DNA of 64,000 bases from an uncultured Clostridia bacterium (GTDB lineage: Bacteria; Acidobacteriota; Aminicenantia; UBA2199), in NCBI GenBank assembly GCA_964628035.1, contig CAZVPI010000013.1:3251-67250 (forward strand), read 5' to 3'. The position numbers were made by a program, and so were the translations under genes. Below are positions 1-63,000 of this stretch, one piece after another. The number at the start of each line of letters is the position of its first letter. Within the stretch, counting starts at the first letter, position 1. The notes beneath the pieces were generated by a model. That model did not search any database and was not told the origin of the DNA. It saw nothing but the letters and a program-made list of their open reading frames with translations.

Positions 1-2
1 AA

Positions 3-3000
3 ATGAAGAAAAGAGAAGCGGGCAAAGAGAAGAAGAAGTCATTGAAAAAAAAGGCAACTAAAGGGCAAAACAAAGCGGGCAAGGCAAGCGAGCCACTGCG
101 GGTGCTGATCCTGGAGGACAGCGCCGCCGACGCCGAGCTGATGGAGCGCCAACTGCGGCGGGAGAAGACCGCGTACAGGTTCCTGCGGGCCGAGACGCGC
201 GCCGGATTCCTGAAGGGGCTGAAGAAGTTCAAGCCCGCTCTCATCCTGGCCGACTACACCCTGCCCGGGTTCGACGCCGTGAGGGCCCTGGCACTCGCAA
301 GGAAGCAGGATCCCCTGCTTCCCTTCATCATCGTCACCGGCTCCATCGGCGAGGAAAAGGCGGTGGCCTGCCTGCGCGCCGGGGCCGACGACTATCTGCT
401 CAAGGATCGCCTTGGACGCCTCGGCGAGGCGATGCGCCAGGCCCTGGAGCGAAGCCGGCAGCGGGGTGAAAGTGCCGCCATGCAGGAAACGCTGGTTGCC
501 AGCGAAGAGCTGCTGCGCGCCTTCATCAACTCCAGCACCGACATGGCCTTCCTCAAGGACGCCCGCTTTCGCCTCCTCGTCGCCAACCAGGCCCTGTGCC
601 GCTTTTTCGGCCGGACGCAAGAAGAGATCCTGGGGCGCACCGACCACCAGTTGATGGAACCGAAGGCGGCCGCCCGCTGCCGCCGCTCCGACCGCCTAGC
701 CTTGAAGGAGGGCGGGATAGTCGTTCAGGAGGAGACGGTAGGCGGCCGCGTGTTCGAAACGCGCAAGTTCCCGGTGCAGTTGGCCGACGGCAGCCGCGGC
801 GTGGGCGCTTACATCCGCGACATTACCGAGAACAGGAAGCTGGAGGCGGCGATCCGCCAGCGCGCCGACGAATGGATCGCCACTTTCGATTCCATCCGCG
901 ATCCCATCGCCCTGTTTGACGCCAAGGGCACCGTGCATCGCTGCAACCGAGCGTTTGCTCTTCTGTCCGGAAAGCCCTTCAAGCAAATCATCGGCCGGCC
1001 TTGCCACCTGTTCGCCGCCGCCGCGGGCGCCTCCTGCCAGTTCCTGCGCCGGGCGCTGAAATCGCACCGCCCCCTGCGCGCCGAAGTGGAACTCGCCGGC
1101 CGCTGGTTCGAACTGGCGATCGATCCGCTGTCAGGAGCCGCAAACAAGTTCCAGGGGGTGGTGCTGGCAATGAAGGACGTCAGCGAGCGCAGGCGGACCG
1201 AGGACGAGCGGTGCCGGCTTTCGCTGGCCGTCGAGCAGAGTCCTACAGCGGTGATCATCACCGATCCGGAAGGCCGGATCGAGTTCGTCAATTCCAAGTT
1301 CTCTGAGCTTACCGGTTACGCTCCGGCCGAAGTTCTGGGAAAGAACCCGCGGCTGCTCAAGTCGGGAGATACTCCGGCCGGCGAATACCGACGGCTATGG
1401 CGGACGATCCGCCGCGGAGGCACCTGGCGCGGCGAGTTCCACAATCGCCGCAAGGACGGCTCTCTGTATTGGGAGCGGGTTGCGATCTCCCCGGTTCTGG
1501 ACGGCCGGGGGCGGATCAACCATTACGTGGCTGTCAAGGAGGACGTCACCCAGCAGAAGCGAACCAACGATTCCCTGCGCGAGAGCGAGAACCGCTTCGC
1601 CGCCTTCTTCCGCTCCAATCCCGGCCCCATCGCCATCACCCGCCTGGACGACCACCGCATCCTCGACGTCAACGAGGCCTGGCAGAACGTCACCGGCTAC
1701 AGCCGCGACGAGGCCATCGGCCGCACGCCGACCGAGCTCGCGCTGTGGCCCGAGCCGGCGGCGCGCCAGCGCATAGTCGACGCCGTGCGTGCCGGCGCAT
1801 CCGTCCACAACTTGGAGATCAACATCCAGCGCAAAGACGGCGAAACACGGCGAATCCTGATGTCGGCCGACCGCATCGTCGTCGGCGGCAGCGCCTGCAT
1901 GATCACCATGGCCCTGGACATCAGCCAGCGCAAGCGCGCCGAGGACTCCCTGCGCGAGATGAACGAGATCTTCCGCCAGTTCCTCAGATACAACCCCCTA
2001 TACGTCTTTATCAAGGACGAGAACATCCGCTCCGTCTTCCTGAGCGACAACTACGAGCGCATGCTCGGACGCCCCCTTACCGAGATCATCGGAAAAACGA
2101 TGGACGAGTTGTTTCCCTCCGCGCTTTCGCGCCAGATGATCGAGGACGACAAGGGCATCCTGCGCGACGGCGCGGTGCGCGAGTTCCAGGAGGAGCTGCA
2201 CGGGCGGATCTATTCCACCATCAAGTTCCCGATCATCATCGACGGCAAGGCCAAGTACCTGGCCGGCTACACCATGGACATCACCGAGCGCACGCGCGCC
2301 GAGGATCTGCTGCGCGAGCGCGACCAGCTGCTGCAGAACCTGTCGGCCCAGATCCCGGGCATGATCTACACCTTCCTGCGCCGGCCCGACGGCAGCTACG
2401 CGCTCCCCTACTGCTCGAACATCATCCGCGAGATCTTCGGCATCGCCCCCCAGGACGTGTGCGAGGACGCCACACCGATCTTCGCCGCCATTTACCCCGA
2501 GGACCTCCCGGGAACCGTGTCTTCCATCGAGAAGTCGGCGCGGGACATGTCTCTCTGGCAGCACGAGTTCCGCGTCCAGGCCCCCGGCCAGCCGCCGAGC
2601 TGGATATGGGCGCGCTCCCAGCCTTTCCACTTGGCCGACGGTTCCATACTCTGGTACGGATTCATCGCCGACATCACCGAGCGCAAGCAGGCCGAGGAGC
2701 GTCTGGCCGCCTCGCTGAAGGAGAAGGAGATTCTGCTCAAGGAGATCCATCACCGGGTCAAGAACAACCTGCAGGTCATTTCCGGCCTGCTGACGCTGCA
2801 GGCGGGGCAAACCGATGACCCACGCCTGGCGCGCCTGGTCCAGGAGAGCCAGTCGCGAATCTGGACCATGGCCCTGATCCACCAGACCCTGTACCAGTCG
2901 GGCGACCTGGCGGCCATCGAGATGGCCGAGTATGTCCGCACGCTCGCCGGCAACCTGATCAGTTCCCAGGCCCGGGTGGCCATGCCCCCCTCCTGCCGCT

Positions 3001-3359
3001 GCGACGTGGAGCCGCTGCGCCTGCCCATCGACCAGGCCATCCCCCTGGCGCTGATCATCAACGAGCTCCTGACCAACGCCCTGAAGCACGCCTTTCCCGA
3101 CGGACGGCCAGGCGAGATCCGTATCCGCCTGCGCTCCCTGCTGCCCCCGGATGCCGGTCAGTGCGAGCTGATCGTCGCCGACGACGGCGTCGGCCTGCCC
3201 ACGGGCTTCGATCCCGGCGAGCAGAAGCACCTGGGCCTGCTGCTGATCGCCATGCTAGCCAGGCAGATCCGCGGCACCCTGGCCTGCGAGCAGGACAACG
3301 GCGCCCGCTTCCGCATCCGCTTCCCGCTCCAGGAAAGAAATGGAGAGCACCATGGTTGA
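3..3359 (+). CDS. Hybrid signal-transduction protein: N-terminal receiver (REC), about six tandem PAS domains, HisKA_2-type histidine kinase core plus HATPase_c. The 5' end touches the window edge.
   Basis: REC motif LRVLILEDSAADAEL...LILADYTLPG...IIVTG. Repeated PAS blocks with D..GR....N patterns. H-box EIHHRVKNNLQVISGLLTLQ is typical of HisKA_2. ATP-lid motifs (DDGVGLP...G.GL) follow. The ATG at 3 may not be the true start. Confidence 0.85.
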   Translation: MKKREAGKEKKKSLKKKATKGQNKAGKASEPLRVLILEDSAADAELMERQLRREKTAYRFLRAETRAGFLKGLKKFKPALILADYTLPGFDAVRALALARKQDPLLPFIIVTGSIGEEKAVACLRAGADDYLLKDRLGRLGEAMRQALERSRQRGESAAMQETLVASEELLRAFINSSTDMAFLKDARFRLLVANQALCRFFGRTQEEILGRTDHQLMEPKAAARCRRSDRLALKEGGIVVQEETVGGRVFETRKFPVQLADGSRGVGAYIRDITENRKLEAAIRQRADEWIATFDSIRDPIALFDAKGTVHRCNRAFALLSGKPFKQIIGRPCHLFAAAAGASCQFLRRALKSHRPLRAEVELAGRWFELAIDPLSGAANKFQGVVLAMKDVSERRRTEDERCRLSLAVEQSPTAVIITDPEGRIEFVNSKFSELTGYAPAEVLGKNPRLLKSGDTPAGEYRRLWRTIRRGGTWRGEFHNRRKDGSLYWERVAISPVLDGRGRINHYVAVKEDVTQQKRTNDSLRESENRFAAFFRSNPGPIAITRLDDHRILDVNEAWQNVTGYSRDEAIGRTPTELALWPEPAARQRIVDAVRAGASVHNLEINIQRKDGETRRILMSADRIVVGGSACMITMALDISQRKRAEDSLREMNEIFRQFLRYNPLYVFIKDENIRSVFLSDNYERMLGRPLTEIIGKTMDELFPSALSRQMIEDDKGILRDGAVREFQEELHGRIYSTIKFPIIIDGKAKYLAGYTMDITERTRAEDLLRERDQLLQNLSAQIPGMIYTFLRRPDGSYALPYCSNIIREIFGIAPQDVCEDATPIFAAIYPEDLPGTVSSIEKSARDMSLWQHEFRVQAPGQPPSWIWARSQPFHLADGSILWYGFIADITERKQAEERLAASLKEKEILLKEIHHRVKNNLQVISGLLTLQAGQTDDPRLARLVQESQSRIWTMALIHQTLYQSGDLAAIEMAEYVRTLAGNLISSQARVAMPPSCRCDVEPLRLPIDQAIPLALIINELLTNALKHAFPDGRPGEIRIRLRSLLPPDAGQCELIVADDGVGLPTGFDPGEQKHLGLLLIAMLARQIRGTLACEQDNGARFRIRFPLQERNGEHHG

Positions 3360-6793: not shown

Positions 6794-9043
6794 ATGGCCA
6801 AATCCCGGATCCTGATCGTAGAGGATGAGGCGATCATCGCCTCGGTCATCGCCTCGGCGCTGCGCAAGTTCGACTACGAGGTGGTCGACATCCTCGACAA
6901 CGGCCCCGACGCGGTGGCCGTCGCGCTGGAGAAGCGTCCTGACCTGCTGCTGATGGACATCCGCATCCACGGCGACATGGACGGCATCAGCGTCGTCGAG
7001 CAGGTGCAGCGCCAGGCTGATATCCCGGTCATCTACCTCACTGCCTACGCCGACGACTCCACCCTGGAACGGGCCAAGCGCACAAAGCCCTACGGCTACA
7101 TCCCCAAACCCTTCCAGGAGATCGAGCTGCGCACCTCCATCGAAATGGCGCTGTACAAGCACGGCTTCGAACTGAAGTTGCGCGAGAGCGAAGCGCGCTT
7201 CCGCTCTCTGTTCGAGAACTCCCAGGACGTCATCTACATCAACGACCGCGACGGAGCGATGACAGAGATGAATCCGGCCGGATTGGCGCTGTTCGGATTC
7301 ACCCGCGAGGAGATCACTGGCGCCCAGGTGGATTTCCTGTATCAGGATCCCGCTGACCGACGCGCCTTCCTGGACGAGGTCCGCAAAAGGGAGCGGGTGA
7401 AGGACTACGAGATCCGCCTGCACAACAAGCAGGGCGAGCCCATCCTGGGACTGGTCACGGCCAATGTCATGCGCGACTCGAACGGCGGCTTTTCCGGTAT
7501 CCAGGGCATCATCCGCGACATCACCGAGAGGCGCAAGCGCGAGGAGACGCTACTTCTTCTGCAGACGGCCATTGACGCCTCCAGCGAGGCGGTGCTCATC
7601 ACCGACAACCGGGGAGCGATCGTCTACGGCAATGCCGCGGTGGAGACCATGACCGGCTATCCTCCCGTCGAGTACCTCGGCATGAACTTCAGCGAACTCG
7701 GCACCCGGATCGATTTTCCGGACGAGAAGATTCGCGAGATGTGGCAACGGATCCAGGGCGGACACTCCTGGAGCGGCGAGTTCCTCAAGCGCCGTAAGGA
7801 CGGTTCGATCTATCACCAGCGGACCATGATCTCGCCGGTGTGCACTGCCGACGGCCCGCCCAGCCACTACGTGAGCATCGCCTCCGACATCACCCGCGAG
7901 AAGAAACTCGAGGAGCAGATGCTGCAGGCGGCCAAGATGGACTCACTGGGGATGCTGGCCAGCGGCATTGCCCACGATTTCAACAACTATCTGGCCATCA
8001 TCAACGGCTACTCGGAGATGCTGCTTGCCGAGAACGAGGGCGGCAAGGACGCCGAGAACCTGAAGATCATCCTGCAAACGGGGAAAAGCGCCTCCAAGCT
8101 GGTGTCCAAGATCCTGGGCTTCAGCCGCCGCCAGGCGCCGGCGCCCGCCGTCCTGGAGGTGAACGCACTTCTAGTCGAGTTGGAACGCATGCTGCGCCGG
8201 CTGTTGGGCGAACGCGTCGAATTCCGCCTCGACCTCGCCCCCGATGCCGGCCGCATCTTCATGGACCCAGGCCAGCTCGAGCAGGCGCTCATTAACCTGG
8301 TCATCAATGCCCGCGACGCGATGCCCCAGGGCGGCACGCTGCGGCTGGCCTCGGCGTTTGTCCGGCTCGACGAGCAGGCCACCGCCCAGCACCCAGGGCT
8401 GAGCGCCGGCGACTATGCGGAGATATGCGTCGCCGACAATGGCGTCGGCATGGAGCCGCAGGTGCTGGCGCGCATCTTTGAGCCCTTCTTCACCACCAAG
8501 CCGGCCGGCGAGGGGACGGGGCTGGGCCTGGCCCTGGTGTTCGGCATCATCCATCAGAACGGCGGCTCCGTGTGGGTCGACAGCAAGCCGGGGAAAGGGT
8601 CGACCTTCCACGTCCTGCTCCCGCAATCGTTCGGCAGAGAGATCAGCGAGCCGGAGCACCGTCCCGGACGTCGTTTTGACGGCCGCATGGTGCTGCTCAT
8701 CGAGGACGAACCGAGCCTCCGCCAGTTTCTTCACGCCATCCTGGAGACGCTGGGCCTGCGGGTGTGTGAGGCTGGTGACGGCGAACTGGGGCTGAAGACC
8801 GCCGAAGGGATGCCTCATCTTGACCTGCTGTTCTGCGACGTTGTACTGCCCGGCCTCTCGGGCGTCGAGGTGGCCGAGCGCATCCGCAAAATCCATCCTC
8901 AGGCCGCCGTGATTCTCAGCTCGGGCCAGGGAGAAAATTACCTGAAGCGCGCCGGCCTCGACGTGGACAAGGTTCACTTCCTCCCCAAGCCCAGCTCGCG
9001 CCGGGCGATCGAGAAGGCGATCGCCGAGGCGCTGGGTGAATGA
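6794..9043 (+). CDS. Hybrid sensor histidine kinase: REC - PAS - PAS - HisKA (classical H-box) - HATPase_c - C-terminal REC.
   Basis: ATG at 6794 preceded by GGAGAGG. N-terminal REC (RILIVEDEAIIAS...LLLMDIRI). H-box LASGIAHDFNNYLAIINGY. N/G1/G2 boxes (NLVINARDAM, DNGVGM, GTGLGLALV). Second REC RMVLLIEDEPSLRQ...LLFCDVVLPG. Confidence 0.85.
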   Translation: MAKSRILIVEDEAIIASVIASALRKFDYEVVDILDNGPDAVAVALEKRPDLLLMDIRIHGDMDGISVVEQVQRQADIPVIYLTAYADDSTLERAKRTKPYGYIPKPFQEIELRTSIEMALYKHGFELKLRESEARFRSLFENSQDVIYINDRDGAMTEMNPAGLALFGFTREEITGAQVDFLYQDPADRRAFLDEVRKRERVKDYEIRLHNKQGEPILGLVTANVMRDSNGGFSGIQGIIRDITERRKREETLLLLQTAIDASSEAVLITDNRGAIVYGNAAVETMTGYPPVEYLGMNFSELGTRIDFPDEKIREMWQRIQGGHSWSGEFLKRRKDGSIYHQRTMISPVCTADGPPSHYVSIASDITREKKLEEQMLQAAKMDSLGMLASGIAHDFNNYLAIINGYSEMLLAENEGGKDAENLKIILQTGKSASKLVSKILGFSRRQAPAPAVLEVNALLVELERMLRRLLGERVEFRLDLAPDAGRIFMDPGQLEQALINLVINARDAMPQGGTLRLASAFVRLDEQATAQHPGLSAGDYAEICVADNGVGMEPQVLARIFEPFFTTKPAGEGTGLGLALVFGIIHQNGGSVWVDSKPGKGSTFHVLLPQSFGREISEPEHRPGRRFDGRMVLLIEDEPSLRQFLHAILETLGLRVCEAGDGELGLKTAEGMPHLDLLFCDVVLPGLSGVEVAERIRKIHPQAAVILSSGQGENYLKRAGLDVDKVHFLPKPSSRRAIEKAIAEALGE

Positions 9044-17813: not shown

Positions 17814-19319
17814 ATGAGCATCCAAACGATCTTCCAGGAAGGGATGAAGGAGCGCCGGCGCCGCAGGTCGCTCGGCCAGCGCGGCCGGGAGCTCAGGGAA
17901 AAGGACCAGGCCCTGGCCTCGCGGCTGACCGAGTTGGGGCAGAAGGCCTGGGAGGCGAAACTCGACATCTCCGCCTTCTCCGCTCTGCGCGCCGCCCTGG
18001 CCGACGCGCAGCGGTCGATCGACGATCTCCGGGGCGAAGCGGAGCAGCTCCTGAGCCGGCAGCAGGAAGCCGAGGAGAAACGCAAGCGCGAGAGCTCCCG
18101 CCTGGCCGTTGCCCTGAAGGAGACCGAGGAGGGCCTGCAGGGCGTGCAGAAGAGCCTGAACGAGCAGAAGGGCACGCTGCAATCGGCGCAGAGGGAGGCG
18201 CAGCGCTCGCGCGAGCGCCTGGCGGCCATCGGCCGCGAGCGCAGCCAGCTGCAGGGCAAGGCCGCCGGCGCCGACGCCAGCGAGGCGGAGAAGGGCGAGA
18301 TCGCCAAGGGGCTGGCGCTGCTGGACAAAGAGGAAACGTCCCTGAAGTCGGGCCTGGACGCCAGCGAAGCCGCCGCCCGTCCGGCTGCGGCGCTCGTGAC
18401 CAGCCTGCAGGAGCAGGCCGAGGTGGCCAAGAAAAAGCTCGAGGCGCTTCGCCAGGAGCAGAAAAGAGTGCTGGGCGAGCTGGACAAGGAACTGGCGGCC
18501 CTGAAAGACAGCCTGGGCAAGAACGGGGACAAGGCCCGCGAGGCCGAGGCGAAGCGACGGGAGGCGTATCGCGAGCTGGGCGAAAAACTGGCCGACGCCA
18601 AGAGCGCCGATCCTGCCCTGGTTGCCGAAATGGCCGCCGCCGCCGCCGCCCGTTCCGAAAAGGAGGGGGTTCAGGCGATGATCGGCGGTCTGGAGCGCCA
18701 GAAGGACGACGCCCAGGTCGGCGCCTACAAGAAGATGATGGCCCTGATCATCGGCGGCCTGGTCCTGCTGGCGGCGCTGGCGGTCGTCCTCGTCCTGCTC
18801 CTCTCCCCCAAGAAGAGGACCCCGGAGGTCACGGGGCTGCCGCCCGGACAGGCCGAGGCGGTGCAGCAGATCCTCAACATGGCCGAAAGGGCGCGGAAGG
18901 AAATGGGCAAGCCGGCGGAGCTGGGAAAGGCGCAGACCGCCGCCGATGAAGCGGGCCTGGCGCTCGTCGACGAGATCCTGGCGACATTCGACCAGTGCGT
19001 GGCCGAGGCGGCGGCCCTGGCCAAGGACCGCCCCGCCGCCGCCATGCTCCTGCCCCAGCTGGAGAAGCTGTATGCCGGCTACGGGGAGAAAATGGCCGCC
19101 CTGAACTCCCGCTTCCTGGCCCTGCGCGACCGTGACCTCTTCGCCTTCCGCCGGGCCAGCGGCGCCATGAGCCAGAAGCGGCCGCAGCACGTCATCGCCA
19201 AGGACAACGCGCTGGGCCCGGCCGTCGCCTATTACAACTTCGAGAAGGGCGAACAGGAGGTCGTCGACATGCTGTCGCGGAGGATCGTCAAGCTGCTCGA
19301 CCAGGCGGTCCAGCCGTAG
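17814..19319 (+). CDS. Coiled-coil protein with a central transmembrane helix; hypothetical.
   Basis: ATG at 17814 with AAGGAG RBS. Long Ala/Glu/Lys/Arg-rich heptad-like N-terminal half. TM segment MMALIIGGLVLLAALAVVLVLLL. C-terminal alpha-helical region. Confidence 0.6.
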   Translation: MSIQTIFQEGMKERRRRRSLGQRGRELREKDQALASRLTELGQKAWEAKLDISAFSALRAALADAQRSIDDLRGEAEQLLSRQQEAEEKRKRESSRLAVALKETEEGLQGVQKSLNEQKGTLQSAQREAQRSRERLAAIGRERSQLQGKAAGADASEAEKGEIAKGLALLDKEETSLKSGLDASEAAARPAAALVTSLQEQAEVAKKKLEALRQEQKRVLGELDKELAALKDSLGKNGDKAREAEAKRREAYRELGEKLADAKSADPALVAEMAAAAAARSEKEGVQAMIGGLERQKDDAQVGAYKKMMALIIGGLVLLAALAVVLVLLLSPKKRTPEVTGLPPGQAEAVQQILNMAERARKEMGKPAELGKAQTAADEAGLALVDEILATFDQCVAEAAALAKDRPAAAMLLPQLEKLYAGYGEKMAALNSRFLALRDRDLFAFRRASGAMSQKRPQHVIAKDNALGPAVAYYNFEKGEQEVVDMLSRRIVKLLDQAVQP

Positions 19320-19350
19320 CAGCGCAGCGAACTGAACGGTAGTGGGAACG

Positions 19351-19405
19351 GTAGCAGCGGGCACTAAAACGGACTCTTTTCCTTACGATTGCCTTTTTCC
19401 TTTCG
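19351..19405 (+). repeat. CU-rich 3'-UTR element, copy A (GGGCACT...ACTCTTTTCCTT...TGCCTTTTTCCTTTC), immediately downstream of the 17814..19319 gene.
   Basis: Shares GGGCACT, a 12-mer ACTCTTTTCCTT and a 14-mer TGCCTTTTTCCTTT, in the same order and spacing, with the reverse complement of 29222-29285. Confidence 0.55.
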
Positions 19406-19549
19406 CGTGCCACCGTCAGCATGAAGCTCGATGAGTTTCTGTGGGCGTGTTCGTGATGGTGGGTGCAATGAGCACTGGATGGAGCGAACCCATCTCAAAG
19501 GATTTATTTCTTCCATTACCACAATCATGATCCGTTTTTTCGGCTGAGC

Positions 19550-19579
19550 TTGACAGTCTCTGCGCAAGGGAAATAGAAT
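19550..19579 (+). promoter_or_regulatory. Canonical sigma-70 promoter TTGACA -N18- TAGAAT upstream of the small membrane-protein gene.
   Basis: TTGACA at 19550-19555, TAGAAT at 19574-19579, GGGAGGG RBS, ATG at 19598. Confidence 0.5.
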
Positions 19580-26147: not shown

Positions 26148-26493
26148 CAAGAACTCCTTTCCGCCAGCCGCCCCTGCCAGGGATGCTCGTGCCGCCAACC
26201 GGCCTGGCTGTCATGGCGGACAAAATGGACCCGCAGGTCGGCCTGGCTCTCGTAGGGGACGAAAAAAACCCGGACATCGGCCTCGCTCTCGGTTTTCACG
26301 AAGTGCCAGAGCTCGTCGCGGCCGCGGGCCTGGCTGCCGTGGCGCACGCGGCGCACGCACAAGTCGGCCTGGCTTTCGTAGCGGACCACGAAAACCTTGA
26401 CATCGGCCCGGCTCTCGACCTCGACGGTGCAGACCTCGGCGGCCGCCAGCGGCGCGGCCGCCAGCGCCAGCAGGAGCGCTGCCGCCGGCCCCC

Positions 26494-28459: not shown

Positions 28460-29095
28460 ATGAACACAGCCAAGAGAATGATCGCCTTGTTCGTGGCCGT
28501 TGCCTTCCTTTCCCTGCTGCAGATCTCGGCCGCGCCGCTGCGCGCCGGGGAGGCGCCGGGGGAGGCGGAGGCCGTGTTGGAGAACGCCGACCAGGGTCCT
28601 GTCGTCATTGAGGAGGAAGGGACCGCCGCCGCGCCGGCCAGGAAGAAAAGCATCCTGCCCATCGTCATCGGCGTGCTCGCCGTGGGCGCCATCGCCGCCG
28701 TCCTGGCCCTGGTGGTGCTGAAGACCAAGTACGACATCACCGGCACCTGGGAGTTCGACTTCGTCTCCACCTCGCCGGCGCACACCTGGAGCTGGACGCT
28801 GGTCTTCAGCGGCGACAGGAAGAGCGGCACCTTCGACGACTCGGGAGACAAGGGCAAATACACGGTCAACGACAAGAGCGTGACCCTCACCTACGATGAA
28901 TGGAACATCAAGCTGACCGGCCAGTTCGACGACAAGGACAAGATGTCGGGCAGCGCCACCTTCTCCGGGCTGACCATCGGCGGCAAGGAGATCACCACCG
29001 CCACCTGGACCGCCGCCCGCGTCGCCTCCGGCGGCTCGCTGCGGCCCGGGAACCTCGCCGGCGCCTCCTCGGGCGACCGCAAGGCCCAGAAATAA
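28460..29095 (+). CDS. Hypothetical membrane-anchored or secreted protein.
   Basis: GGAGG RBS. Signal peptide MNTAKRMIALFVAVAFLSLLQISAAPLRA plus a second hydrophobic segment ILPIVIGVLAVGAIAAVLALVVL. No known domain. Confidence 0.55.
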   Translation: MNTAKRMIALFVAVAFLSLLQISAAPLRAGEAPGEAEAVLENADQGPVVIEEEGTAAAPARKKSILPIVIGVLAVGAIAAVLALVVLKTKYDITGTWEFDFVSTSPAHTWSWTLVFSGDRKSGTFDDSGDKGKYTVNDKSVTLTYDEWNIKLTGQFDDKDKMSGSATFSGLTIGGKEITTATWTAARVASGGSLRPGNLAGASSGDRKAQK

Positions 29096-29134
29096 GCGCC
29101 GCCTGAGCGAGCGAACCCGAATCGATCTGCAGGG

Positions 29135-29161
29135 GAGGGGCGAAAGCCCCTCTTTTTTTTT
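29135..29161 (+). terminator. Rho-independent terminator: GAGGGGC-GAAA-GCCCCTC stem-loop followed by T9.
   Basis: Perfect 7-bp GC-rich stem with a GAAA tetraloop at 29135-29152, then nine T residues 29153-29161, about 40 nt after the 28460..29095 stop. Flanked by the direct repeat CGATCTGCAG (29121-29130 and 29176-29185). Confidence 0.7.
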
Positions 29162-29221
29162 AGAGAAAAAATTCCGATCTGCAGTGACCCATGAAGCTCA
29201 CCGGCTTTCGCGCTGAGAAAA

Positions 29222-29285
29222 GCCATCGAAAGGTAAAAGGAAAAAGGCAAAAGCAAGGAAAAGAGTTCGCTGCAGTGCCCGTCAC
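29222..29285 (-). repeat. CU-rich 3'-UTR element, copy B (inverted relative to copy A), in the 3' region of murB.
   Basis: Reverse complement reads GGGCACTGCAGCGAACTCTTTTCCTTGCTTTTGCCTTTTTCCTTTTACCTTTCG, matching copy A at 19351-19405. Confidence 0.55.
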
Positions 29286-29391
29286 CGCCCCTGCCACTAG
29301 CAGCTCATGGAGCCGCTTTGTGACACGGATGTTGTCCCTGTTGGTTCGCTGAGTCTCTTCCCAAGACGAACACGGACACCAAGTGATCGGG

Positions 29392-31738: not shown

Positions 31739-31856
31739 TGCTAGGGTTGAATTATAGGGAAAAGGCCGAGGGCCGTCAAATCCGATATCCGCGACGATCT
31801 CTCCTGCGATGCATGCGCCGAGCTTCTTGCTGACACTGACATTGACACCGAAAAAG

Positions 31857-58788: not shown

Positions 58789-59130
58789 ATGAACCAACTG
58801 CTTTGGGCGGAAAGCGTGGATGTGGCCATGACCGTCTGCGACCGCGAGGGGATCGTCCTGTACATGAATGACAGGGCCGCGGCCGCCTTCGCCCCCGAGG
58901 GGGGCAAGGCTCTGGTGGGGACATGCCTGATGCCCTGCCACCCCGAGCCGGCGCGGCGCAGGATCCAGGAGATCCTGGCCACGCGGCGGGCCAACACCTA
59001 CACCATCGAGAAGAACGGGGTGAGGAAGCTCATCCACCAGGCGCCCTGGTTCGAGAACGGCGAGCTGGGCGGGCTGGTGGAGTTTTCCATCGTCCTGCCC
59101 GCGGAGATGCCGCATTACAAAAGGACCTAG
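58789..59130 (+). CDS. Small single-domain PAS protein (113 aa) with a conserved Cys-His-Pro motif; paralog of 16093..16497.
   Basis: AMTVCDREGIVLYMNDRAAAAF...CLMPCHPEPA...GGLVEFSIVL aligns with the 16093 protein. Its stop TAG (59128-59130) is the first unit of the heptamer array. Confidence 0.65.
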   Translation: MNQLLWAESVDVAMTVCDREGIVLYMNDRAAAAFAPEGGKALVGTCLMPCHPEPARRRIQEILATRRANTYTIEKNGVRKLIHQAPWFENGELGGLVEFSIVLPAEMPHYKRT

Positions 59131-59366
59131 ACGTTAGACGTCAGACGTTAGCAGGAAACTCAATGAGATCAGACGTTAGACGTCAGACGTTAGCAGGAAA
59201 AAGCCCTTTAAGAGAACTCGGGTGAAAGATCTGAGGCGCTGGCTGAGGACGACGGATGCCGGAAAACAAACATCCGACATCAGTCGCCAGACGTCAGACG
59301 TTAGCCGGAAACGAAATGAGATCAGACGTTAGACGCTAGACGTTAGACGTTAGTGGATAGCAAGAA
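59128..59366 (+). repeat. Heptamer (AGACGTY)n tandem arrays organised as a higher-order repeat: two identical 30-mers AGACGTTAGACGTCAGACGTTAGCAGGAAA (59129-59158, 59171-59200) plus arrays at 59289-59312 and 59324-59366.
   Basis: Direct reading of 59121-59370. Each array is followed by an AGCMGGAAA(C) A-rich motif and/or AATGAGATC. Confidence 0.8.
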
Positions 59367-59373
59367 GCATATC

Positions 59374-59709
59374 TGTCCAAAATAACTTCAAACCTGGGAA
59401 GACTGAAGCACCAAGTTCCAAGCACCAAATTCCAAACAAGCACCAAGCCCCAATGACCCAATGACCAAAACAAAGGCCATATAGGTTCAAGTTCTATACA
59501 CCTAAAGTGCGTTTTGGCCTCCTTTTGGGTCACAACGTCCCCGCCAGGGGATTGGAATTTGGAACTTGGAATTTTTTTGGGATTTGATGCTTGGTGCTTG
59601 GAATGTTAGTCTTACCAGCATCAGACCTCGCCGCAAAAAATACTGTGGCTAGCCCCGAAACCCTTTACAGTGCTAGTTGTCTGTCAAAAAGGCAATTTAT
59701 TTTGGACAG
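59374..59709. repeat. About 336-bp low-GC segment bounded by a perfect 13-bp inverted repeat (CTGTCCAAAATAA / TTATTTTGGACAG); contains long imperfect inverted repeats (59409-59438 vs 59553-59608) and a hairpin at 59681-59709. MITE-like or structured-RNA-like.
   Basis: The words TTCCAAGCACCAA / TTGGTGCTTGGAA and the AATGACCCAATGACCAAA direct repeat are visible in the sequence. GC content is far below flanking DNA. Confidence 0.5.
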
Positions 59710-59768
59710 CAATGAGCAAGAAGAATCCCTTAGGAGCTTGAATTGCCCTTTTTCTTGCTAACGTCTGA

Positions 59769-59954
59769 CTACTTCTTTTTGATCGTTGAGATCTTGAACG
59801 GCACGTACAGCGGGCAAAAGCCGAGCAGGGCCGTGACCAGCGGGATCAGCGCGAAAAGCCCCCACCAGGTCTGGAAATAGATGCCCAGGGCGATGCCGGC
59901 GAGGCCGATGACGCCCCGGACGATGCGGTCCGTACTTCCCATGTTGCGCTTCAT
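59769..59954 (-). CDS. DUF2892-like small inner-membrane protein (61 aa), embedded in the repeat island.
   Basis: MKRNMGSTDRIVRGVIGLAGIALGIYFQTWWGLFALIPLVTALLGFCPLY resembles the YgaP-associated DUF2892 fold. Its stop TAG is followed directly by TCAGACGTTAGCAAGAAAAAG. Confidence 0.55.
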   Translation of the reverse strand: MKRNMGSTDRIVRGVIGLAGIALGIYFQTWWGLFALIPLVTALLGFCPLYVPFKISTIKKK

Positions 59955-60043
59955 GTCGCACCTCCACGAACCCGCACATTAGATGCCAAATGCGGGATGG
60001 ATGCAAGGCAAAAAGGCATGCCGATCCCCGTACAGGGCTTTTT

Positions 60044-60080
60044 TTCTTGCTAATGTCTAACGTCTAACGTCTACCGTCTG
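60044..60080 (-). repeat. Inverted (minus-strand) heptamer array AGACGGT AGACGTT AGACGTT AGACATT AGCAAGAAAAAAA that includes the stop codon of the Ser/Thr kinase gene.
   Basis: Reverse complement of 60044-60080. The last codons TCA GAC GGT AGA CGT TAG of the kinase are built from the repeat. Confidence 0.75.
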
Positions 60081-63000
60081 AGTTCGGATAGAGCTTGTCC
60101 AGCTCGGCCGCGATCTCGGCCAGCGTCGGCCTCTTCGCCGGATCCTTGTCGATCATGGCCGCGATCAACGCCTCCAGCGCCGGCGGCGTCTCCGGGTTGA
60201 TCTCCCGCGCCGGCACCGGGTAGGTCTCGAGGATGCGGTGGATCACCTCGCCGGTCGCCTCGGACCAGAACGGCTTGGCCGCGGTCAGCATCTCGTAGAG
60301 GATGATGCCGGCCGAATAGATGTCGCCGGCGACCGACGAGACGCCCCGCTGGATGCGCTCGGGAGGCAGGTAGCGGACGGTGCCCATGACCACTCCCGAC
60401 ATCGTCAGCCGCGACTGGGCAGGGGTGATGGCCAGTCCGAAGTCGAGGAGCTTGACGAGCGGCCGGCCGCCGCCGCCGTCCAGAACCATGATGTTTTCGG
60501 GCTTCAGGTCGCGGTGCAGGATCTCCCGGCCGTGGATGGCCTTCAGGGCCTCTACGACCTGGCGCATGACCACGACGGCCTCCTGCGGCCGGAAGCGCCC
60601 GCGCTCGCGTATGAGGCGGGCCAGCGTGGCGCCCGACAGCAGCTCCATGGCGATGTAGAAGCAGTCGTCGCTCTCGCCGCGCTCGAAGACGCGCACGATG
60701 TGCGGGTGGTCCAGGCCGGCGGTGATCTGCGACTCGTGGCGGAAGCGGCGCTTCTGGGCCTCGTCGTGGAAATTCTCCTCCTTCAGCAGCTTGAGGGCCA
60801 CCACCCGTTTCTCGCCCAGCAGGTCCTGGGCCTTGTAGACCGTGGCCATGCCGCCGCTGCCGATCGTTTCCAGGATCTTGTAGTGGCCGACCTGCGTCTT
60901 CTTTTTCCAGAATTTCACGGCGCGCAGGTATTTCCGCAGCAGCTGCCAGGAGAAGGCCGACAGCGCGGCGAAGGCCAGGGCGGCCAGGGAGAGGAACCAC
61001 CAGGTCTGGTGAACGAAGGGCCGCAGGACGAAGAGGAACTCGGCGCCGGACCGGTTCCACACGCCGTCGGCGTTGGCGGCGATGACGCGGAAGCGGTAGC
61101 GGCCGGGCCGCAGGTCGTTGTAGAAGGCCTGGCGCCGGTTGCCGGCGTCGACCCAGTCCCGTTCATAGCCCTCCAGCTTGTAGCGGAAGACGATCTTGTC
61201 GGAGCGGACGAGGCTCAGGGCGGTGTAGGCGAACTCGAGCTTGCGGCGGCCGGCAGGAAGCGAACAGGGGCCGGCCGCGCCGGCGCCCGGCAGGGGCAGG
61301 CTGCGGCCGTCGGCCAGGGCCCGCTCGATGCGCACCGCCGGCACGCGCCCATTGCGGCGGATGCGGGCGGGATCGATGCCGGCCACGCCGGCGAGGTTGG
61401 CGAACCACAACCTCCCCTGCTCGTCGCGCCAGCCGGCCGGGTCGCCGTAGTTGCAGATCCGGCTGGCCATGCCGTCGGTCTCGTCAAAAAGGCGGCCGCT
61501 CACCCTGGGTCTGCGGCCGAAAGCCGCCGCCTCAAGATCGCCGGCCGCGACGCGGAACAGGCCGCGCTCGCTGCTCAGCCACAAGTGGCCCAGGCCGTCG
61601 GCGAGGATGGCGTAGATCCGGCTGTCGAACAGCCCCTGCCCGGCCGACACCGAACCCCAGCGGCCCTGGCGGAGGACCTTGATCCCCTGATGCGTGCCGA
61701 TCCAGAGGCCGCCTCCGCCATCATCGAAAAAAGACGTCACATGACAACCGGCAAGGAAGGGCTCGGCGACGAACCGGGCCCCGGGCCCGGGCGCCATCAC
61801 CGCCATGCCGTTCTCGCAACCGGCCCAGATGCCGCCGCCGGGGCCGGCGTGCAGCGCCGAGACGAAGTTCCCGGGCAGACCGTCGGCCGCGGAGTAGGCG
61901 GTGACGTTTCCGCCGCTCAGGCAGTGCACGCCCATGCCCCAGGTGCCGATCCACAGCCTTCCCTGCCGGTCGCTGGCGAGGCAGCGCACCTCGACATCGT
62001 GGGCGACGCCGGGAAGCCCCCGCCGCTCGACGCGCCCGCGGCGCAGGCGCATCAGTCCCGCGGAGGTTCCCAGCCACAGCGCGCCGCCGGGGCCGGCCTC
62101 CAGGGCGTAGACCGCGTGGTCGCGGTCCGCCCCCGGCAGCCGCAGCCCGTCGCAGCGCCCGCCGCGGATCCGGTTCAGGGTCCCGCCGCTGCCGCCCACC
62201 CAGAGCATCCCGTTCCCGTCGCCATGGAGGCAGCGGAACTTGTTGCCGACCAATCCTTCGCGGTCGGTGAAGGAGGTGATCTTCTCGTCGCGGATCTGGA
62301 TCAATCCCCCGTCCAGGGCCCCCACCCACAGCGAGCCCTCGGCGTCCTCGCACAGGGCGTACACCCAGTCGCTCCCCAGCCCCCGGTTTTTGCCGATGGC
62401 CTGCCAGTCGCTCCGGTTCCAGCGGTACAGCCCGCTTTCGCTGCCCACCCAAAGGTTGCCGTCGCGGTCCTCGACCAGCGAAGTAACCAGGGAGCGGAAA
62501 CCTCCCGGAGGCGCGATCTCCTGCCAGCTTCCTTCGCGGGTGCGGGCCAGCCCGTCCTCACAGCCCAGCCACAGCCAGCCGTCACGGCCGGGGAGGATGG
62601 CATAGATGTCGCCGCCCTTCAGCCCGGAGGCGGGCAGGACGCGGTTCCATTCGTCGCCTTCCAGCCGCAACAGCCCATCCCCGGCCACACTGGCCAGGAG
62701 CCGACCGGAGCGGTCCTTGGCCAGGGTCAGAATCGCAGCGCCGCCCAAGCCGGGATCCCGGGCCAGCTCGCCGCCAGCGCCGGCAAGGCGGCGGAAGAGC
62801 CCGGCCGAGGTCCCGACCCAAAGATCTCCGCGGCCGTCCTCGGTGATGCAGGAGAACGAGATGCGCGAAACCTCCGGGGCAAGCGCATGCGAGCGAAAGA
62901 CGCCCTGCTCCAGGCTGAGCAGCTTTCCGCGCATGGTGCCGATCCAGAGGACACCGCGGCGGTCGAAGTAGAGGTTGCCGACAAGATTGTCCTGGAAAAC

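Follow-up and report, generated by a model that had tools for sequence, protein, structure and literature searches.

REP/BIME elements are built on an imperfect palindrome of 20-40 bp that forms a stable hairpin, often exceed 100 copies per genome and are associated with a RAYT transposase. Pneumococcal BOX elements follow the order boxA-boxB(n)-boxC, with a variable tandem middle in which the boxB unit is about 45 nt long. Rho utilisation (rut) sites are typically 70-80 nt long, C-rich and G-poor, and are not normally repeated sequence families. REPs are mostly found downstream of genes, are transcribed, and have a palindrome one end of which bears a GTAG or CGTC tag that stays unpaired (PMC3733652). 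One of them, REP325, terminates transcription in a partly Rho-dependent way and also acts as an mRNA stabiliser (bioRxiv 10.64898/2026.03.23.713779). Our search of the literature on Aminicenantes repeats and non-coding RNA found nothing relevant.

The 64-kb stretch of DNA analysed here (the window) harbours two CU-rich stretches that share the exact 31-nt pattern ACTCTTTTCCTT-N5-TGCCTTTTTCCTTT, at 19373-19403 (+, copy A) and 29236-29266 (-, copy B). These were the only matches in the window, and the pattern was absent from 100 dinucleotide-preserving shuffles of it. The 12-mer with up to one mismatch and the exact 14-mer also matched the window at copies A and B only. The same order and spacing of the two words had been described as beyond chance, and these counts bear that out. 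Copy A against copy B is the longest inverted repeat of the window (19340-19403 vs 29236-29299, 64 nt, 77%), and the similarity reaches non-repetitive flanks (GGGCACT, which is common to both copies inside the 64 nt, and CGAAC). Coordinates confirmed that both copies lie in gene-sense orientation after unrelated genes, a coiled-coil gene and murB (Table 1).

Copy A begins 36-54 nt past the stop codon of the coiled-coil gene, in a 278-nt spacer between two same-strand genes, and does not lie at a simple transcript end. The G-rich array in front of it begins 16 nt past the same stop codon and aligns with GTGATA/GTGGTA arrays before the copies of a relative (L078) and with the 5' arm of a hairpin in another one (L070). 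The 31-nt core is 87% pyrimidine and contains 2 G. It is followed, in this order, by a hairpin with a T6 run (about 130 nt from copy A), a promoter, a 60-aa gene and msrBA. By alignment this hairpin is the orthologue of a near-perfect one in L070, and it probably serves the coiled-coil gene as its intrinsic terminator. Copy B begins 107-126 nt past the stop codon of murB, the last gene of a dcw-type cluster. Its core is a period-7 repeat (TRF period 7, 3.6 copies, 29229-29253), and its 41 nt contain 12 C, 3 G and 23 T. The Rho-independent terminator of the convergent gene, already described near copy B, was recovered (29131-29156 plus a T-run). Intrinsic terminator prediction found no terminator-like site at either copy, the nearest being this terminator and the T6 hairpin of locus A, and no credible sigma-70 or sigma-54 promoter was found in or across the core.

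Table 1. Features of the two loci and of a related array, with window positions.
Feature	Position	Strand	Remarks
Coiled-coil gene, 501 aa (coiled-coil/membrane protein)	TAG stop 19317-19319	+	No Pfam match
G-rich short-period array 5' of copy A, AACGGTAG TGGG AACGGTAG CAGC	19335..19358	+	Read directly
Copy A unit, linker AGCGGGCACT-AAAA-CGGAC then pyrimidine core	19355..19408	+	R1 55.8 bits (in training set)
GTCAGCATGAAGCTCG, separate array-end module containing CATGAAGCTC	19415..19430	+	1 mismatch from GTCAGCAAGAAGCTCG at 31819-31834 (-)
Long imperfect hairpin, T6 end at 19535-19540	~19443..19540	+	Alignment with L070; fold -37.4 kcal/mol, z = -0.9
Sigma-70-type promoter TTGACA-18-TAGAAT, near-consensus	19550..19579	+	Upstream of 60-aa gene and msrBA; conserved in L070 and L074
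Intrinsic terminator GGGGAGGGGC-GAAA-GCCCCTC + T9	29131..29165	+	Of convergent 211-aa gene (28460-29095)
CATGAAGCTC adjoining copy B, within CAGTGAC-CCATGAAGCTCACCGG	29190..29199	+	Strand opposite to element
Copy B unit, GTGACGGGCACT-GCAG-CGAAC then pyrimidine core	29228..29285	-	R1 61.3 bits
murB, last gene of dcw-type cluster	TAA stop 29394-29392	-	
(GTCAAT GTCAGT GTCAGC)AAGAAGCTCG array and motif	31819..31848	-	After poly(A)-polymerase gene, without CU core

A CATGAAGCTC-type motif had also been described next to both copies. It does adjoin both, and the window contains exactly two matches (19420-29 and 29190-99, both on the + strand; 0.12 expected), but it is part of another repeat module, in the same orientation as the element at copy A and inverted at copy B. 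The motif belongs to the module (GTCAGN)n-GCAWGAAGCTCG, which is present again at 31819-31834 (-). At copy B, CAGTGAC-CCATGAAGCTCACCGG resembles this array-end module in the orientation of the convergent gene. In one relative (L073, 36-55) the array-end motif lies directly 3' of a CU core. Other copies have AAG where CATGAAGCTC has ATG; this ATG is therefore no conserved start codon. The two genomes differ at the poly(A)-polymerase site: L073, an 89% relative, has a CU core (1-26) immediately upstream of the array-end motif, while the window has the motif without the core.

In the aligned copies a common linker, (G)YAGCGGGCACT-N4-CGAAC, leads into CTCTTTTCYTTRCTTTTRCCTTTTWCCTTT, and the consensus of the unit is GYAGCGGGCACT-N4-CGAACTCTTTTCYTTRCTTTTRCCTTTTWCCTTT. 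The CU core is a degenerate heptad repeat, (CTTTTNC)n, preceded by a G-rich hexamer/heptamer array and the GCGGGCACT..CGAAC linker; the upstream array is poor in C (AACGGTAG in copy A, GTGATA/GTGGTA in L078). Read in the sense of the upstream gene, the full unit would run from the stop codon through a C-poor, G/T/A-rich hexamer/heptamer array (GTGATA/GTGGTA, AACGGTAG and similar) and the linker AGCGGGCACT-N4-CGAAC to the heptad tract (CTTTTNC)n, often with the array-end motif (GTCAGN)n-GCAAGAAGCTCG after it.

Proteins identical to those of the window are encoded on many digester-type metagenome contigs, and the homologues of these proteins carry the label Aminicenantes or Acidobacteriota. Contigs of the same species, taken from many samples, do not differ in either spacer, so there was no population variation to use; in relatives synteny is conserved, which makes the orthologous spacers readable. 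With the further copies found in related genomes (L078, L127/L083 and L073) the total is six, spread over five loci of four related Aminicenantes-like genomes, and every copy is in the sense of the upstream gene (sign test over the five loci, p ~0.03). The genes in front of the five loci are the coiled-coil gene (window), murB (window), murB (L078), that of a cyclophilin and, as judged from synteny, that of a poly(A) polymerase; the gene arrangement is tandem at locus A, L127 and L073 and convergent at murB in the window and in L078. L078 (74% MurB identity) carries two tandem units after murB, at 2779-2830 and 2888-2944, in murB sense. The copy after the cyclophilin gene (L127 7632-7688, the same element as in L083 on overlapping contigs) came from the metagenome scan. 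A sequence model built from five copies (R1) matched the partial copy at the start of contig L073, which lies outside the training set (E = 0.0013); this copy stands upstream of a PQQ-like gene, which by synteny places it after the poly(A)-polymerase gene. R1 found no copy in L070, L074-L077, L137 or L138, and the window with its added flanks of about 12 kb had no third one. The source genome, covered over about 76 kb, showed just these two copies, too few to demonstrate a high copy number.

Core identity between copies ranges from 71 to 91%. The highest value of any pair is that of copy B and L078 unit 2 (32/35 core positions, 91%), where the remaining spacer does not align. Conservation at orthologous loci thus holds at murB of L078; it fails at locus A of the 88% relative and at both loci of relatives at 65-68% identity. 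In the 88% relative (L070, protein identity) locus A keeps the post-stop array, GCGGGCACT and the promoter; the CU core is absent, and a near-perfect GTGATA/GTGGTA hairpin stands in its place. In the alignment of the window with L070, about 100 extra nt in the window carry the CU unit, between GGGCACT and GAGCACT. The assembled sequence of the 65-68% relatives (L074, L076, L137 and L138) contains other repeats and no CU core at either locus; the murB spacer of L137 has an assembly gap. A test for the terminal inverted repeats and target-site duplication of MITEs or transposon-derived repeats was negative, the extra segment of about 100 nt having the direct GGGCACT/GAGCACT of adjacent units at its bounds and no inverted ends.

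Wider scans added little. The pattern CTTTTCCTT-N3-8-GCCTTTTTCCTT gave 53 single matches in genome contigs of unrelated taxa, none with the flanks and mostly in lysine/glutamate-rich coding sequence on the opposite strand; the source genome was not among the matches. A family-derived pattern gave 52 matches in metagenome contigs, of which only L127/L083 was credible; the JGI samples holding the source organism were not among them. A CU-rich run at window 1-54 (-) was rejected as a copy, as it is the lysine-rich N-terminus of the first gene on the other strand. This gene (response regulator/PAS kinase, 1118 aa) has a lysine-rich opening made up of purines only (3-90, +), which mimics a CU-rich tract on the other strand. 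Purine-rich modules (GGCAAACGTAAG and similar) in L074, L076, L127 and L133 were considered as reverse complements of the core, which neither blastn nor R1 supported.

A few other spacers of the source genome and its relatives are filled with similar arrays of short period, which usually begin at a stop codon or close to it and in many cases have AGCARGA at their end (window 59128-60081; L133 9291-9516; ten arrays in L074 11507-12168). Heptamer arrays of AGACGTT/AGACGTC, each followed by AGCAGGAAA or AGCAAGAAAAA, occur at window 59128-59353 (+), 59748-59770 and 60040-60081 (inverted). They begin exactly at the TAG stop codons of a PAS gene (59128) and of a kinase gene (60066-60064), one comes after a YgaP-like gene, and all are in the sense of the preceding gene. 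In the source genome just upstream of the window (L133 9291-9516 and 9955-10000), (GGTATAG)n and (GGTACAG)n arrays stand right after stop codons, and the (GGTATAG)n array is paired with a complementary arm, CU-rich and C-rich (TTCCTCTTCTCTTCACCCTGCGCCCCGCACCCTATC), across the spacer. The L070 hairpin (2908-3010) is made of GTGATA/GTGGTA hexamers and their complement, with arms of about 26-29 nt, followed by TTTCTTTC; it folds at -55.8 kcal/mol (z = -8.1; z = -8 on both strands), and the window has a degenerate version at this site.

Other repeats were seen in the same genomes. Nested inverted low-complexity arms (ccaaattccaaa... vs ...ttggaatttgg) occur at window 59390-59600, L074 11689-11960, L076 11075-11235 and L127 5100-5200. 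In these four genomes they enclose a conserved core (ccaaaacgaaagc ... cgtttgggt, gtccccgYcaggggattgg) without an Rfam match, and may represent a MITE-like element or a structured RNA that is yet to be described. At window 26200-26291 and L074 18810-18900, a 39-nt tandem repeat of about 2.4 copies that contains AAAAAAAA lies in or adjoins a 116-aa gene between AIRS and substrate-binding-protein genes and is conserved in the 66%-identity relative. Downstream of the CU core of L127, at 7697-7875, are three short palindromes (CTGTCCCAAAATGGGACAG type) of a REP-like family of which none was seen in the window. Contigs of relatives (L073, L080; L137 4064-4173) break or are gapped about 30 nt past the murB stop codon, inside (AGTGTT)n arrays, and contig L073 also starts inside a CU core. 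Since these contigs end or gap inside arrays, the repeats are implied to be multi-copy in those genomes.

We read the CU stretches as paralogues, both copied from a single module of an extragenic repeat family that is modular and specific to this lineage, transcribed into 3' UTRs and with a core that acts at the RNA level, and give this statement as a whole a probability of about 0.6. Taken alone, the assignment to an extragenic repeat family module of an Aminicenantes-like clade is highly probable. The copies form a family, lie in sense orientation, are polymorphic for presence and absence, are non-coding and have no significant fold. What the preliminary description had presented as a conserved 3'-UTR element is non-random, in gene sense and shared by unrelated genes; it is not a stand-alone signal, being one module of a dispersed repeat family with gain and loss. 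Units would be duplicated, gained and lost between close relatives, and this would be the reason why unrelated genes share them. The family reading is tempered by the low copy count in the source genome and the single further copy from the scans, by low-complexity sequence, which inflates the apparent similarity of the copies, and by the orthologous murB locus, where purifying selection acting on a specific signal, instead of repeat dynamics, could account for the 91% identity.

An RNA-level role as a pyrimidine platform is suggested by the position of the core in the 3' UTR and by its predicted, unusually unpaired state in a genome of about 68% G+C. The core was among the least paired 31-nt stretches predicted for its transcript in three copies (ranks 16/496 and 10/537 in the window copies, with a mean unpaired probability of 0.56-0.57, and 6/493); the mean reached 0.97 in L127, and the L078 pair ranked 95-112 of about 567. 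The exposed platform may load a termination or turnover factor, with Rho as the leading candidate, ahead of the downstream hairpin, a use demonstrated for some E. coli REP elements. This functional part is doubtful and proposed tentatively, because the 78-nt C/G ratio is 1.3/1.6 and the tract is short and U-rich.

A dedicated rut site could instead have been selected independently at each gene end, with Rho loading on the C>G tract after the ribosome leaves and terminating at the next pause hairpin. A rut-like composition had been proposed, and within the 31-41-nt core it stood: the core is strongly C>G (C/G 4-5), 85-87% pyrimidine, with 2-3 G and a YC dinucleotide about every 7 nt. Over 78 nt, however, C/G on the rut-prediction scale is only 1.3 in copy A (top 17% of all windows) and 1.6 in copy B (top 4%), the tract covers just 31-41 nt, is rich in U and not in C, and is flanked by G-rich sequence, so that composition gives weak support to a putative rut site. 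The setting is also consistent with Rho loading: the core is predicted to be weakly paired, is untranslated and past the stop codon, stands upstream of a hairpin at both copies, and is conserved at the orthologous murB locus, and the terminator scan found no sense-strand intrinsic terminator belonging to murB. However, independent selection would not yield identical 12- and 14-mers together with the shared GGGCACT linker and the shared flanking modules, and the 88% relative manages without the element at locus A. We consider independently selected rut sites unlikely.

The arrays described above could be parts of a clade-wide, sense-strand gene-end system, in which stop-abutting hexamer/heptamer arrays, the AGCARGA end motif and pyrimidine/purine heptad tracts would be read at the RNA level by a periodicity-recognising factor (ring-shaped, e.g. 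Rho, or Hfq-/TRAP-like) to terminate or process transcripts, with the CU core as the loading module. The sequences of the units would drift between orthologous loci while the periodic architecture persists. We regard such a system as quite unlikely.

The core might also pair with the G-rich array upstream and make up the descending strand of a G·U-rich RNA hairpin; such a stem-loop, existing on the sense strand only, would stabilise or terminate the transcript. RNAalifold proposed 15 pairs between array and CU tract, 2 of them with compensatory changes, but the consensus energy was only -7.6 kcal/mol, from four sequences. The sense strand folded better in 10 of the 13 array-bearing spacers, and for L078 unit 2 the difference was marked (-29.0 vs -14.3 kcal/mol in antisense); this asymmetry was, however, reversed for copy A and L078 unit 1. 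The related L070 unit is a near-perfect hairpin (z = -8), whereas individual CU copies never folded better than their own shuffles (z from -0.23 to +1.01 for the two window copies on both strands; z from -0.7 to +1.0, not significant, across copies) and the core is predicted to be mostly unpaired. Rfam had no match in the whole window at gathering thresholds; at E up to 1, copy A had none and copy B only Histone3 (18 bits vs the 34-bit threshold). A sense-strand stem-loop is improbable.

A small RNA or sponge derived from the 3' UTR would act by pairing of the CU tract with purine-rich sequences (AAGGAG-type Shine-Dalgarno, GA-rich modules) in other transcripts. The core exposes UUCCUU and CUCUUUUCC stretches complementary to AAGGA(A/G), yet it has no CCUCC anti-SD core. 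GA-rich modules are present in related spacers, but they are not detectably the reverse complement of the core, and no GA-rich intergenic partner was found within the window. At copy A a hairpin with a T6 run about 130 nt downstream fits an sRNA, while copy B has no sense-strand terminator to set the 3' end. Such a regulatory RNA is highly improbable.

That the copies are low-complexity sequence similar by chance, or that they hide a small protein-coding sequence, is effectively refuted: T/C-rich patterns do recur in large collections (the 53 and 52 matches above, nearly all unrelated) and the reverse strand of the element does read as K/E/G-rich peptides, but the shuffles gave zero matches, similarity extends beyond the repetitive core into the flanks, the copies keep their core identity, the shared 14-mer falls in different reverse-strand frames (KEKG in copy A vs KGKR in copy B) interrupted by stop codons, the core of L078 unit 1 has a 2-nt indel, and no start codon opens the sense-strand frames. 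A small ORF at the element was rejected on the differing reverse-strand frames, the indel and the ATG of CATGAAGCTC, which is not conserved.

If the family reading is true, there is a class of 3'-UTR repeats particular to an uncultured phylum of high G+C content, made of short-period arrays instead of palindromes. These repeats come and go between close relatives and could adjust read-through or the stability of mRNA while leaving coding sequence and promoters untouched. They also fragment metagenome assemblies, since contigs end in them. Natural alleles with and without the repeat would be a ready comparison for metatranscriptomes of digester communities. Nothing known on termination or small RNAs is overturned, and the wider array system is more unusual than the CU element itself.

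The CU element shares several features with known systems. Like rut sites, including artificial polypyrimidine ones, its core is pyrimidine-rich, G-poor and predicted to be weakly structured, and it comes after a stop codon and before a potential pause hairpin; unlike them, it is much shorter and U-rich, has an ordinary C/G at the 78-nt scale and belongs to a repeat family. Like BOX elements, which are often co-transcribed with a neighbouring gene, the units are intergenic and consist of separable modules in varying combinations and numbers. Unlike BOX, to which they have no sequence relationship, their repeat units are 6-8 nt rather than about 45 nt long, the arrays begin at a stop codon or close to it, and the CU-containing units have no predicted stable overall fold. 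The likeness to the REP/BIME elements of Proteobacteria goes further: these too are short dispersed non-coding repeats, mostly downstream of coding regions and between tandem or convergent genes (PMC3733652), and at all five loci the CU copies are extragenic and downstream of genes in tandem or convergent arrangement. Both are composite mosaics whose presence varies between strains, and REP/BIME elements are transcribed into 3' UTRs, as the CU unit presumably is. In contrast to REP/BIME, the CU core is a pyrimidine heptad repeat on one strand that is not palindromic and does not fold significantly; GTAG is present within the arrays upstream of it (AACGGTAG, GTGGTAG) and not as a tag beside a palindrome, and no GTAG- or CGTC-tagged stem was seen. 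As the palindrome is lacking, the CU element is not filed as a REP, although it is REP-like in position and dynamics. Among known extragenic repeats the REP/BIME class comes closest, and beside it the CU element stands as a lineage-specific small extragenic repeat.
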